Below are positions 36,493 to 40,824 of a DNA stretch of 64,000 nucleotides, piece by piece. This DNA is from Escherichia coli (GTDB taxonomy: Bacteria; Pseudomonadota; Gammaproteobacteria; Enterobacterales; Enterobacteriaceae), in NCBI RefSeq assembly GCF_029227855.1, contig NZ_CP074356.1. The stretch is one strand, 5' to 3'. The notes under the pieces are model-generated. The model was not told the origin of the DNA, made no database searches, and saw only the letters and a program-made list of their open reading frames with translations. The position numbers were made by a program, and so were the translations under genes. Numbering within the stretch: the stretch's first letter is position 1; the number at the start of each line of letters is the position of its first letter.

Positions 36493-36520
36493 TTCTCCTG
36501 ATTTCCTCAATTGAAATGAA

Positions 36521-36549
36521 CCCGATGATCTGCGCATCGGGTTTTTTAT
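36521..36549 (+). terminator. Rho-independent terminator after cheW
   Basis: cccgatg-atctgcg-catcggg followed by TTTTTT. Confidence 0.7.
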
Positions 36550-36578
36550 TTCAATTTCGCGGCGGGTGGCATCAGCAA

Positions 36579-36605
36579 TAAAGTTTCCCCCTTCCTTGCC
36601 GATAA
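36579..36605 (+). promoter_or_regulatory. tar: sigma28 promoter of tar-tap-cheRBYZ
   Basis: TAAAGTTT-N11-GCCGATAA, perfect consensus, about 30 nt upstream of tar ATG. Confidence 0.8.
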
Positions 36606-36636
36606 CGAGATCAACTTGTTTTCAGGAAGGTGCCTT

Positions 36637-38298
36637 ATGATTAACCGTATCCGCGTAGTCACGCTGTTGGTAATGGTGCTGGGGGTATTCGCACTGTTAC
36701 AGCTTATTTCCGGCAGTCTGTTTTTTTCTTCCCTTCACCATAGCCAGAAGAGCTTTGTGGTTTCCAATCAATTACGGGAACAGCAGGGCGAGCTGACGTC
36801 AACCTGGGATTTAATGCTGCAAACGCGCATTAACCTGAGTCGTTCAGCGGTGCGGATGATGATGGATTCCTCCAATCAACAAAGTAACGCCAAAGTTGAA
36901 TTGCTCGATAGCGCCAGGAAAACATTGGCCCAGGCCGCGACTCATTATAAAAAATTCAAAAGCATGGCACCGTTACCTGAAATGGTCGCTACCAGTCGTA
37001 ATATTGATGAAAAATATAAAAACTATCACACAGCGTTAACTGAACTGATTGATTATCTTGATTATGGCAATACTGGAGCTTATTTCGCTCAGCCAACCCA
37101 GGGAATGCAAAATGCAATGGGCGAAGCGTTTGCTCAGTACGCCCTCAGCAGTGAAAAACTGTATCGCGATATCGTCACTGACAACGCAGATGATTACCGA
37201 TTTGCCCAGTGGCAACTGGCGGTTATCGCGCTGGTGGTTGTATTGATTCTGCTGGTGGCGTGGTACGGCATTCGCCGTATGTTGCTTACACCGCTGGCAA
37301 AAATTATTGCTCACATTCGCGAAATCGCCAGTGGTAACCTGGCGAATACCCTGACCATTGACGGGCGCAGTGAAATGGGCGACCTGGCGCAGAGCGTTTC
37401 ACATATGCAACGCTCTTTGACTGACACCGTCACTCATGTGCGTGAAGGTTCAGATGCCATCTATGCCGGTACCCGTGAAATTGCGGCGGGCAACACCGAT
37501 CTTTCCTCCCGTACTGAACAGCAGGCATCCGCGCTGGAAGAAACTGCCGCCAGCATGGAGCAGCTCACTGCGACAGTGAAGCAAAACGCCGATAACGCCC
37601 GCCAGGCCTCGCAACTGGCGCAAAGTGCCTCCGATACTGCCCAGCACGGCGGAAAAGTAGTGGATGGTGTAGTGAAAACGATGCATGAGATCGCCGATAG
37701 TTCGAAGAAAATTGCCGACATTATCAGCGTTATCGATGGTATTGCCTTCCAGACTAATATCCTCGCGTTGAATGCCGCTGTTGAAGCCGCGCGTGCGGGT
37801 GAACAGGGCCGTGGTTTTGCCGTGGTGGCGGGCGAAGTGCGTAATCTTGCCAGTCGCAGCGCCCAGGCGGCAAAAGAGATCAAAGCCCTCATTGAAGACT
37901 CCGTCTCGCGCGTTGATACCGGTTCGGTGCTGGTCGAAAGCGCCGGGGAAACAATGAACAATATCGTCAATGCTGTCACTCGCGTGACTGACATTATGGG
38001 CGAGATTGCATCGGCATCGGATGAACAGAGCCGTGGCATCGATCAAGTCGCATTGGCGGTTTCGGAAATGGATCGCGTCACGCAACAGAACGCATCGCTG
38101 GTGCAGGAATCAGCTGCCGCCGCAGCTGCGCTGGAAGAACAGGCCAGTCGTTTAACGCAAGCGGTTTCCGCGTTTCGTCTGGCAGCCAGCCCACTCACCA
38201 ATAAACCGCAAACACCATCCCGTCCTGCCAGTGAGCAACCACCGGCACAGCCACGACTGCGAATTACTGAACAAGATCCAAACTGGGAAACATTTTGA
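36637..38298 (+). CDS. tar: Methyl-accepting chemotaxis protein II (aspartate/maltose)
   Basis: 553 aa from [15 protein letters not shown] and MCP signalling domains; C-terminal NWETF pentapeptide. Confidence 0.9.
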
Positions 38299-38343
38299 CG
38301 AGTTTTTACTAACGCGGTCATTGCCGCCTGATGGGGAGCGTTG

Positions 38344-39945
38344 ATGTTTAATCGTATTCGAATTTCGACCACGCTGTTTTTAATTTTGATTCTCTGCGGG
38401 ATCTTGCAGATTGGCAGTAACGGCATGTCTTTTTGGGCATTTCGCGACGATTTGCAACGACTGAATCAGGTCGAGCAGAGCAATCAGCAACGTGCGGCAT
38501 TAGCGCAAACTCGGGCGGTAATGTTACAGGCCAGTACCGCGCTGAACAAAGCGGGCACTCTGACGGCGCTCAGCTATCCGGCGGATGACATTAAAACGTT
38601 GATGACGACGGCGCGCGCCAGTCTGACGCAATCCACCACGCTGTTTAAAAGTTTTATGGCGATGACTGCGGGCAATGAGCACGTCAGGGCGTTGCAAAAA
38701 GAGACGGAGAAAAGTTTTGCCCGCTGGCACAACGATCTCGAACATCAGGCGACCTGGCTTGAAAGTAATCAACTTTCGGATTTCCTTACTGCGCCGGTGC
38801 AGGAATCACAGAATGCGTTTGACGTTAACTTTGAGGCCTGGCAGCTGGAGATCAACCATGTGCTGGAAGCCGCCAGTGCGCAAAGCCAGCGTAACTATCA
38901 GATTTCGGCGCTGGTGTTTATCAGCATGATTATTGTTGCGGCGATCTACATCAGCAGTGCGCTGTGGTGGACGCGCAAGATGATTGTTCAACCACTGACC
39001 ATTATCGGTAGCCATTTTGACAGCATTGCTGCGGGTAATCTGGCGCGTCCGATTGCGGTGTATGGTCGCAATGAGATCACCGCCATTTTTGCCAGCCTGA
39101 AGACCATGCAGCAGGCTTTGCGTGGGACGGTAAGTGATGTGCGTAAGGGAAGCCAGGAGATGCACATTGGTATCGCGGAGATTGTCGCAGGCAATAACGA
39201 TCTCTCAAGTCGTACCGAACAGCAGGCGGCATCGCTGGCACAAACGGCCGCCAGTATGGAGCAATTAACCGCCACAGTAGGGCAAAACGCCGATAACGCA
39301 CGACAGGCGTCGGAACTGGCAAAAAATGCCGCGACAACGGCGCAGGCGGGCGGTGTTCAGGTCAGTACCATGACTCACACCATGCAGGAGATCGCCACCA
39401 GCTCGCAAAAAATTGGCGACATTATCAGCGTTATCGACGGCATTGCTTTCCAGACCAATATTCTGGCCCTGAATGCGGCAGTGGAAGCGGCTCGCGCCGG
39501 AGAGCAGGGGCGTGGTTTTGCGGTAGTGGCAGGTGAAGTGCGCAATCTTGCCAGCCGTAGCGCCCAGGCAGCAAAAGAGATCAAAGGGCTGATCGAAGAG
39601 TCAGTCAATCGTGTCCAGCAGGGTTCGAAACTGGTGAATAACGCCGCCGCGACCATGACCGATATTGTCAGTTCGGTAACCCGCGTGAACGACATTATGG
39701 GAGAAATTGCTTCGGCGTCGGAAGAACAACGTCGGGGGATTGAGCAGGTTGCGCAGGCTGTCAGCCAGATGGATCAGGTGACACAGCAGAACGCCTCGCT
39801 GGTAGAAGAAGCGGCGGCGGCAACGGAACAACTGGCGAACCAGGCTGACCATCTTTCGTCGCGTGTGGCGGTATTTACCCTTGAAGAACATGAAGTAGCA
39901 CGACATGAGTCGGCGCAGTTACATATTGCGCCAGTGGTATCCTGA
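38344..39945 (+). CDS. tap: Methyl-accepting chemotaxis protein IV (dipeptide/pyrimidine)
   Basis: 533 aa from MFNRIRISTTLF; MCP signalling domain near-identical to tar; no NWETF. Confidence 0.9.
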   Translation: MFNRIRISTTLFLILILCGILQIGSNGMSFWAFRDDLQRLNQVEQSNQQRAALAQTRAVMLQASTALNKAGTLTALSYPADDIKTLMTTARASLTQSTTLFKSFMAMTAGNEHVRALQKETEKSFARWHNDLEHQATWLESNQLSDFLTAPVQESQNAFDVNFEAWQLEINHVLEAASAQSQRNYQISALVFISMIIVAAIYISSALWWTRKMIVQPLTIIGSHFDSIAAGNLARPIAVYGRNEITAIFASLKTMQQALRGTVSDVRKGSQEMHIGIAEIVAGNNDLSSRTEQQAASLAQTAASMEQLTATVGQNADNARQASELAKNAATTAQAGGVQVSTMTHTMQEIATSSQKIGDIISVIDGIAFQTNILALNAAVEAARAGEQGRGFAVVAGEVRNLASRSAQAAKEIKGLIEESVNRVQQGSKLVNNAAATMTDIVSSVTRVNDIMGEIASASEEQRRGIEQVAQAVSQMDQVTQQNASLVEEAAAATEQLANQADHLSSRVAVFTLEEHEVARHESAQLHIAPVVS

Positions 39946-39963
39946 AGTGATTGAGAAGGCGCT

Positions 39964-40824
39964 ATGACTTCATCTCTGCCCTGTGGGCAAACGTCTTTAT
40001 TGTTACAGATGACCGAGCGCCTGGCGCTTTCCGACGCGCATTTTCGGCGGATAAGTCAATTGATCTATCAACGAGCCGGGATCGTTCTGGCTGACCATAA
40101 ACGCGACATGGTTTACAACCGACTGGTTCGTCGTTTGCGTTCGCTGGGACTGACGGATTTCGGCCATTACTTGAACTTGCTGGAATCTAACCAGCACAGC
40201 GGTGAGTGGCAGGCGTTTATCAATTCGCTGACCACGAATCTGACGGCATTTTTCCGTGAGGCGCATCATTTTCCTCTGCTCGCGGATCACGCCCGGCGTC
40301 GTTCTGGCGAGTATCGCGTATGGAGCGCGGCGGCTTCGACCGGCGAAGAGCCGTACAGCATTGCGATGACGCTGGCTGACACATTGGGCACCGCGCCCGG
40401 ACGCTGGAAAGTGTTTGCCAGCGACATTGACACCGAAGTGCTGGAAAAAGCCAGAAGCGGTATTTATCGCCATGAAGAGTTGAAAAATCTGACGCCGCAG
40501 CAACTGCAGCGGTACTTCATGCGAGGGACGGGACCGCATCAAGGGCTGGTACGCGTGCGTCAGGAACTGGCGAATTATGTTGATTTTGCCCCGCTGAATT
40601 TACTGGCGAAACAGTACACCGTGCCGGGGCCGTTTGATGCGATCTTCTGTCGTAACGTCATGATCTACTTCGATCAAACTACCCAGCAGGAGATTTTGCG
40701 CCGCTTTGTTCCGCTCCTTAAACCCGACGGATTGCTGTTTGCGGGTCACTCTGAAAACTTTAGCCACCTTGAGCGCCGCTTCACGCTGCGCGGTCAGACG
40801 GTGTATGCGCTAAGTAAGGATTAA
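39964..40824 (+). CDS. cheR: Chemotaxis methyltransferase CheR
   Basis: 286-aa ORF, SAM-dependent methyltransferase. Confidence 0.9.

Follow-up and report, generated by a model that had tools for sequence, protein, structure and literature searches.

Hybrid chemoreceptor genes in which the 5' part of tar is joined to the 3' part of tap exist in nature, and their junctions fall inside a segment that the two neighbouring genes have in common. Very probably, the two genes are tandem paralogues of long standing with a common segment constrained at the protein level, and natural in-frame hybrids arise from rare in-register exchange between the two copies. The locus was read in a window of 64,000 nt of Escherichia coli chromosome, in which the tar and tap regions are 100% identical to those of strain C4. 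It includes the following features.

36518-36544: terminator hairpin of cheW, from a terminator scan
36579-36605, + strand: site upstream of tar resembling a sigma-28 (FliA) class-3 promoter, TAAAGTTT-N11-GCCGATAA, from reading of the sequence and presumably of that class by its consensus
36637-38298, + strand: tar, aspartate/maltose chemoreceptor (methyl-accepting chemotaxis protein II), from the ORF, Pfam and identity with strain C4
38344-39945, + strand: tap, dipeptide chemoreceptor (methyl-accepting chemotaxis protein IV), from the ORF, Pfam and the annotation of strain C4

Gene order is cheA-cheW-tar-tap-cheR-cheB-cheY-cheZ. The naming of the two genes as tar and tap in a preliminary description was right, as judged from Pfam domains, the identity with strain C4 (the annotation of which matches) and the order of the operon. 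Both proteins carry Pfam TarH, HAMP and MCPsignal domains; PF02203 (TarH) scores 142 bits in Tar and 145 bits in Tap (cutoff 25.2), and PF00672 (HAMP) and PF00015 (MCP signalling domain) are present with 211 and 191 bits. TarH is the N-terminal four-helix-bundle ligand-binding domain between two transmembrane helices. Tar, of 553 aa, ends in ...QDPNWETF, and Tap, of 533 aa, ends in ...IAPVVS without the NWETF tail, a pentapeptide confined to high-abundance receptors, where it tethers CheR and CheB. A terminator scan of the 45-nt tar-tap spacer found none, and an Rfam search found no RNA family within 37480-39700, its sole match (C0465) lying upstream of tar.

A self dot-plot of 36600-40000, in 40-nt windows at 75% identity or more, gave one diagonal only; its offset is 1701 nt and its blocks extend between 37485 and 38120. 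The two copies and the core of the first are:

37480-38130, + strand: repeat copy 1, in the cytoplasmic signalling domain of tar, spanning methylation helix 1, the hairpin tip and methylation helix 2
39181-39831, + strand: repeat copy 2, in the signalling domain of tap, in frame with copy 1 at the offset of 1701
37711-37887, + strand: core of copy 1, the hairpin tip, Tar residues 359-417, with its partner in tap at 39412-39588

The offset equals 3 x 567 nt, which keeps the two direct copies in one reading frame and agrees with the direct orientation and spacing of about 1.7 kb first described. DNA identity between tar and tap is 83.9% over 37720-37880 and 73.1% over 37480-38100 (about 620 nt), far above chance as set by shuffled controls (26%, maximum 30%). 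The tar interval just named is that of the preliminary description, and its partner in tap is 39421-39581, one base away from the 39420-39580 quoted there. A repeat search returned 37678-37977 against 39379-39678 at 77% and 37468-37652 against 39169-39353 at 74%, and in 60-nt windows the identity peak is sharp (83-87%). Across the core the protein is 97% and the DNA 84% identical. "Near-identical", as the segment had been called, therefore fits the protein (57 of 59 core residues) but not the DNA (84% in the core, 73% over about 620 nt). Among the strings quoted as common, attatcagcgttatcga and ttccagac occur in both genes, but gcgggcgaagtgcg occurs in tar only, tap having gcaggtgaagtgcg. A dot-plot had been proposed as the check, with identity below about 80 percent or only short runs to count against the claim. 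The core, at 83.9%, lies just above that limit, but the runs are indeed only short, because the longest exact ones are just 21 nt (37716-37736), 18 nt (37581-37598) and 16 nt (37870-37885). The shared segment as first observed is thus partly confirmed.

The repeat also explains, as had been proposed, a pair of similar antisense ORFs, which are reverse-strand shadows of the two signalling domains and 79% identical over 106 aa.

37461-38039, - strand: shadow ORF of 192 aa over the tar signalling domain, from the ORF list, not a gene
39375-39695, - strand: shadow ORF of 106 aa over the tap signalling domain, from the ORF list, not a gene

The interpretation of the repeat as a substrate for unequal recombination that gives hybrids is supported by a census of genomes. 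With an 800-nt probe of the flanks only, a tar5'-tap3' hybrid was found in exactly 3 of 5,386 complete E. coli genomes (ET474, PEC389 and ETEC4088), with junctions inside the shared segment. In all three the flanks are joined by a 1701-nt in-frame deletion, and an intact hybrid gene of 1608 nt (535 aa) stands between cheW and cheR. The hybrid proteins end in ...IAPVVS, as Tap does, without NWETF, and are annotated in databases as plain Tar. A synthetic tar5'-tap3' query of 1,820 nt also ranked the three true fusions at the top, but was unfit for counting, wild-type genomes being merged at 100% coverage as well. Proteins exactly matching the hybrids are found on 71 and 28 contigs; 24 contigs were read for each protein and have the same neighbours, all those shown being cheA-cheW-hybrid-cheR-cheB-cheY-cheZ. 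For the reciprocal product, no single-piece match to a synthetic tap5'-tar3' probe was present among the matches listed. The best match of that probe is an IS1 truncation and not a hybrid. No genome has more than two copies of the tar-tap spacer, and on chromosomes just two surplus places were counted. A limited literature search found no earlier report of natural tar-tap hybrids, and a prior report is possible.

The three hybrids in complete genomes comprise two alleles, with crossovers inside the 21-nt and 18-nt runs, and a wider protein search added two further junction classes. All four classes lie within 37516-37736.

37716-37736, + strand: class A crossover, 21-nt run, partner 39417-39437 (ET474, PEC389; P0002)
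37581-37598, + strand: class B crossover, 18-nt run, partner 39282-39299 (ETEC4088; P0001 and variants)
37546-37553, + strand: class C crossover, 8-nt run, partner 39247-39254 (P0023, locus L016)
37516-37526, + strand: class D crossover, 11-nt run, partner 39217-39227 (P0026, locus L017)

A Shigella flexneri protein (P0025) belongs to class C at the protein level. The crossovers fall in comparatively long stretches of perfect identity (21, 18, 11 and 8 nt), longer than a position-uniform model predicts (expected mean 5.7 nt, P ~0.003). Class B is present on several tar/tap haplotypes. The protein-database survey that brings the classes to four favours early crossovers, since at 90% identity the products of late ones fall into the Tar cluster; the census free of this bias therefore counts two events.

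In the mechanism that best fits these observations, tar and tap would be old tandem paralogues within a sigma-28-driven tar-tap-cheRBYZ operon. Because the copies lie in direct orientation and in frame, 1701 nt from each other, exchange between them would delete that length. Its rare product would be a single in-frame tar5'-tap3' gene with the promoter and start of tar, followed directly by cheR. The exchange may proceed by RecA-mediated homeologous recombination or by RecA-independent short-homology slippage. If slippage or template switching at identities of 8-21 nt were the whole of it, the extended 73-84% homology would be incidental, and this alternative is a serious one, though with rather less than an even chance. 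Two of the classes use just 8 and 11 nt, a poorer fit to classical homologous recombination, and several deletions at the locus occurred at microhomologies outside the repeat register. Against this, all four in-register classes hold the exact 1701-nt register and favour the longest runs, a register and a preference that homology-guided alignment predicts as well; the in-frame products are perhaps just the survivors.

The deletions outside the repeat register are several. In the B2 lineage, tap was lost through a deletion of 1,374 nt within the gene at a microhomology of 4 nt, CAGG; tar is intact, a tap remnant is left and no hybrid is formed. Loss of tap is found in roughly one-fifth of complete genomes, and the commonest natural loss is unrelated to the tar-tap repeat. 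Further deletions of 81 nt in tap and 222 nt in tar were likewise at microhomology outside the register, as was a tar-tap junction in E. fergusonii, and out-of-register Tar-Tap fusions were found. Loss of Tap and Trg is common in UPEC and B2 strains (PMC3559539, PMC12623472).

The segment encodes the cytoplasmic signalling domain of methyl-accepting chemotaxis proteins. Under the preferred reading of rare exchange between old paralogues, strong purifying selection holds the protein almost invariant across all five E. coli receptors, and synonymous sites have drifted near saturation. CheA and CheW dock at the hairpin tip, which also makes the trimer-of-dimers contacts. The sequence of the tip is common to all five receptors, and Tar and Tap have 56 consecutive identical residues there (Tar 361-416, Tap 359-414). 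Ongoing conversion between the tandem copies could instead maintain the near-identity. The copies are tandem and direct, as such concerted evolution would need, identity peaks sharply (83-87% in 60-nt windows), and there is a small surplus of common codons over independent draws. That surplus (for tar-tap, z = 2.4 for the core and z = 3.3 for the full domain) is matched by the unlinked gene tsr, tar-tap and tar-tsr core codon sharing both standing about 2.3-2.4 sd above independent codon draws. Where core residues are identical, the codon itself is shared at 54% of positions between tar and tap and at 54% between tar and tsr, at core protein identities of 97% and 95%, and over the whole signalling domain the same-codon fractions are 0.49 and 0.50. 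In this test of gene conversion, synonymous similarity of tar-tap is therefore not above that of tar-tsr. No long tract of perfect identity occurs between tar and tap; the longest, of 21 nt, is close to a back-of-envelope 19 nt for 84% identity over about 180 nt, and other receptor pairs, unlinked ones among them, have longer runs (tap-aer 29 nt, tar-tsr 28 nt, tar-trg 22 nt). With the core protein common to all five receptors as well, concerted evolution is very improbable. The segment is homeologous (73-84%) without sign of gene conversion. Since tar-tap shares codons to the same extent as tar-tsr, purifying selection is indicated, and neither gene conversion nor recent duplication; the DNA similarity is a by-product of protein constraint. 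Very old conversion, or a common position-specific codon preference, may lie behind the small codon excess.

The shortness of the runs bears on the hybrids too. A conserved segment in both genes, together with the draft status of many of the carrying assemblies, could suggest that two similar genes were collapsed in assembly. Assemblers typically use k-mers much longer than 21 nt, and the exact runs of at most 21 nt are far shorter than that. Moreover, hybrids are carried by three assemblies of complete-genome level, every junction is precise and in frame, and the same proteins turn up, without change, on 71 and 28 contigs. One allele is identical base for base over 4.8 kb between a frog isolate from China and a pig isolate from South Korea. 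An assembly artefact is, on these grounds, scarcely credible. Least plausible of all, and refuted, is that the similarity is the remnant of a young tandem duplication: the genes are tandem, in the same orientation and of the same domain architecture, but residues 1-212 (the periplasmic ligand-binding and transmembrane part) are 21% identical in protein and 39% in DNA, synonymous sites are near saturation, and the signalling domain of tar is nearer to that of unlinked tsr (82% protein identity) than to that of tap (71%).

As predicted from engineered Tar-Tap chimeras, the hybrids should respond to aspartate and maltose, show no dipeptide taxis and have no NWETF to tether CheR and CheB; they would then behave like a receptor of low-abundance type that needs Tsr for adaptation. 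The chimeras of 1998 reportedly underlie the expectation that aspartate would be sensed, with poor clockwise signalling and poor adaptation where NWETF is missing. It is conceivable, though on balance doubtful, that the hybrids form a recurrent and heritable class of natural alleles in E. coli, Shigella and possibly another enterobacterium (P0084), tolerated or advantageous. If so, they would arise repeatedly at a few short runs of identity and persist in lineages, the swap removing Tap and giving the aspartate sensor a tether-less module of low-abundance type, hidden in databases under the name Tar. Natural hybrids make up about 0.06% of complete genomes, and their annotation as Tar could mislead surveys of chemoreceptor repertoires. 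The locus also offers a natural series of deletions at identities of 4-21 nt, a small data set on short-homology rearrangement in wild E. coli. The homology of tar and tap and their fusion in the laboratory were published as early as the 1980s; the shared segment is therefore known and ordinary, and what the natural hybrid alleles add is modest.

Several known systems invite comparison. Slocum, Halden and Parkinson are said to have obtained, in 1987, spontaneous laboratory tar-tap fusions by recombination in K-12. The hybrids described here involve the same genes in the same orientation and give the same product, a Tar N-terminus with a Tap C-terminus joined through homologous 3' parts. A passage of one later paper cites Slocum, Halden & Parkinson 1987 for functional chimeric receptors (PMC2229510). 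Unlike the laboratory fusions, the present hybrids come from isolates of wild and clinical origin (three complete genomes out of 5,386), fall into at least four crossover classes with junctions mapped to the nucleotide, and bear the plain database label Tar. Weerasuriya, Schneider and Manson, for their part, reportedly engineered Tar-Tap and Tap-Tar chimeras in 1998 with joints in the linker after TM2. Those chimeras likewise combine the Tar sensing domain with the Tap signalling domain, but the natural joints are further downstream, at Tar residues ~294-367, in methylation helix 1 or the hairpin tip.

Loss of Tap and Trg in B2 and UPEC strains (Lane et al. 2006; Borziak et al. 2013) is similar in that the receptor set varies at the same locus. 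In contrast to the hybrids, tap in the B2 lineage was lost by the 1,374-nt intra-tap deletion at 4 nt of microhomology, with tar intact. Finally, Lepore-type fusions are known for delta-beta globin and for red-green opsin hybrids. As in those cases, tandem paralogues in the same orientation give one in-frame hybrid by unequal exchange, the intervening DNA being lost. Two differences stand out: the reciprocal duplication was not seen at tar-tap among the matches listed, and divergence between the bacterial repeats is much greater (73-84% identity), which accounts for the rarity of tar-tap fusion events.

Segment 36600-40000 matches E. coli strain C4 at 100% identity; there it is annotated as tar and tap within the order flhDC-motAB-cheAW-tar-tap-cheRBYZ-flhBA. 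The relevant features are as follows.

36518-36544, 5' of tar: cheW terminator hairpin, from the terminator scan
36579-36605, 5' of tar: TAAAGTTT-N11-GCCGATAA site, read from the sequence
36637-38298, plus strand: tar, named from strain C4; ORF listing, with Pfam TarH, HAMP and MCPsignal
38344-39945, same strand as tar: tap, named from strain C4; ORF listing, with Pfam TarH, HAMP and MCPsignal

The site upstream of tar fits the sigma-28 consensus. No terminator was found by the terminator scan in the 45-nt tar-tap spacer. An Rfam match to the C0465 sRNA family in the cheW-tar spacer (111.6 bits, 36512-36589, minus strand) overlaps the cheW terminator hairpin and adjoins the sigma-28-like tar promoter.

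A self dot-plot of 36600-40000 gives only one diagonal, from about 37485 to 38120, at an offset of 1701, so that the tar and tap copies are in frame. DNA identity to the tap copy is 83.9% for 37720-37880 and 73.1% for 37480-38100, against 26% in shuffled controls; the repeat is thus real and non-random. The preliminary description called the segment near-identical, which holds for the core protein (57/59 residues identical, 56 of them in a row) but not for the DNA, in which the three longest perfect runs measure 21, 18 and 16 nt. Its paired similar antisense ORFs, 79% identical, are indeed shadows of this repeat. The shared segment is the signalling domain of chemoreceptors, a function presumed here from established chemoreceptor knowledge.

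When the window's tar and tap were aligned with K-12 tsr, trg and aer, the hairpin-tip core proved common to all five receptors. Core DNA identity is 84% for tar-tap and 81% for the unlinked pair tar-tsr, and identical core residues use the same codon in 54% of cases in both pairs, each 2.3-2.4 sd above the approximately 39% predicted by independent codon draws. The periplasmic halves of Tar and Tap are only 21% identical. Judged from these comparisons, the tar/tap duplication is old, with synonymous sites near saturation; the tandem pair appears to be under no homogenising process, with gene conversion signal absent, and its DNA similarity is a by-product of selection on protein. Among unlinked pairs, the longest exact runs are 29 nt for tap-aer, 28 nt for tar-tsr and 22 nt for tar-trg (K-12 loci L003, L004 and L005), all exceeding the 21 nt of the tandem pair. 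By sequence, distant receptor genes are thus no less open to ectopic exchange than the tandem pair.

Natural hybrids were sought with a probe of unique flanks only (37080-37479 joined to 39850-40249), which gives one joined match only in genomes that lack about 1.5-2.4 kb between the flanks. Among 5,386 complete E. coli genomes, exactly 3 have such a locus: ET474 (frog, China), PEC389 (pig, South Korea) and ETEC4088 (pig, Belgium). Between cheW and cheR, all three have an intact gene of 1608 nt annotated tar, and informative-site mapping gives a clean switch from tar-type to tap-type. The crossover lies within the 21-nt run 37716-37736 in ET474 and PEC389, whose loci are identical across 4.8 kb, and within the 18-nt run 37581-37598 in ETEC4088. 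With in-frame hybrids joined inside shared runs, the suggestion that the repeat is a recombination substrate is borne out. The exact hybrid proteins are recorded on 71 and 28 contigs; in the 24 contigs inspected per protein the neighbour genes are the same, and gene order is constant at every place shown.

One protein-database search with a hybrid as query returned further 535-aa hybrids and two more crossover classes; DNA mapping places these in runs of 11 nt (37516-37526) and 8 nt (37546-37553). The crossover runs of 21, 18, 11 and 8 nt compare with 5.7 nt expected under a position-uniform model (P ~0.003), the unbiased crossover sample being two events; the protein survey misses late crossovers, since at 90% identity such hybrids fall into the same clusters as Tar. 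The ETEC4088 class (class B) is present on several tar and tap haplotypes, which suggests recurrence or later recombination. No reciprocal tap-tar hybrid was seen among the top matches to a tap5'-tar3' probe. A 535-aa enterobacterial receptor (P0084; L019, Logan run SRR11450272), followed by a cheR-like gene, is Tar-like in its N-terminal part up to the tip, turns Tap-like at about KEIK|GLIEES and has PVVS as its end; another genus may thus have acquired an in-register Tar-Tap fusion independently.

The hybrids could arise by RecA-dependent homeologous recombination or by short-homology slippage. Slippage is a serious alternative for the exchanges, favoured by junctions of only 8-11 nt and by the many microhomology deletions at the locus. 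Judging by engineered Tar-Tap chimeras, the hybrids are expected to sense aspartate and maltose, to lack dipeptide taxis and to be without the NWETF tether.

Other fusions and receptor variants were also encountered. In L018 (P0072, a 74-sequence cluster; P0073, named Escherichia fergusonii, is near-identical), tar continues to the equivalent of 38186, then through the last five tap codons (39928 onward) into cheR. The junction lies at a microhomology, out of register; tap is absent, and Tar ends in ...AFRLTAPVVS, without NWETF. P0017, P0018, P0027 and P0028 are out-of-register, in-frame Tar-Tap fusions of 656-771 aa with two signalling or two sensing domains; in P0027 the junction coincides with the 17-nt direct repeat CGC(T/C)GGTGCAGGAATCA (38096-38112 / 38792-38808). 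P0029 (578 aa; also P0031 and P0032) is a Tar with a 25-residue tandem duplication precisely at the hairpin tip. L020 (P0051) encodes a Tar-Trg hybrid, in which cheW and the 5' part of tar are joined to the 3' part of trg and ydcI, with the crossover inside the 22-nt tar/trg run (window 37541-37562); its contig is only 2,872 nt, and either an assembly chimera or a large rearrangement joining distant loci could account for it.

About one-fifth of complete E. coli genomes cover only 60% of the region and carry a 1,374-nt deletion within tap. In IHE3034 (L001), tar is intact and this deletion (38471-39844), at a CAGG microhomology in an imperfect 12-nt repeat (38463-38474 / 39837-39848), leaves a frameshifted remnant. 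This deletion is the known Tap loss, described as frequent in UPEC and in phylogroup B2 (PMC3559539, PMC12623472), and makes no use of the tar/tap repeat. LD39-1 and at least four other strains (L010) have an in-frame 81-nt tap deletion (about 39229-39309) between two CAGGCG copies, which shortens methylation helix 1 by about 27 residues; the gene is still annotated as an intact chemoreceptor of 506 aa. Strains 472, 673 and PI24 (L011) have an in-frame 222-nt tar deletion (37815-38036) between GTGAACAGGGCCGTGG and ATGAACAGAGCCGTGG, which form an imperfect repeat (EQGRG and EQSRG motifs), with half of the hairpin gone. In strain 2023CK-01509 (L009), tap is cut off within the signalling domain by an IS1A insertion and argS follows directly, with cheRBYZ and the downstream flh genes missing.

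Homology between tar and tap has been known since the 1980s, and laboratory tar-tap recombinant fusions were reportedly described by Slocum et al. in 1987. The repeat and its fusion potential are, for these reasons, already known. Slocum et al. 1987 is among the references of PMC2229510. To this is added, modestly, that tar-tap hybrids circulate in wild isolates, labelled Tar.
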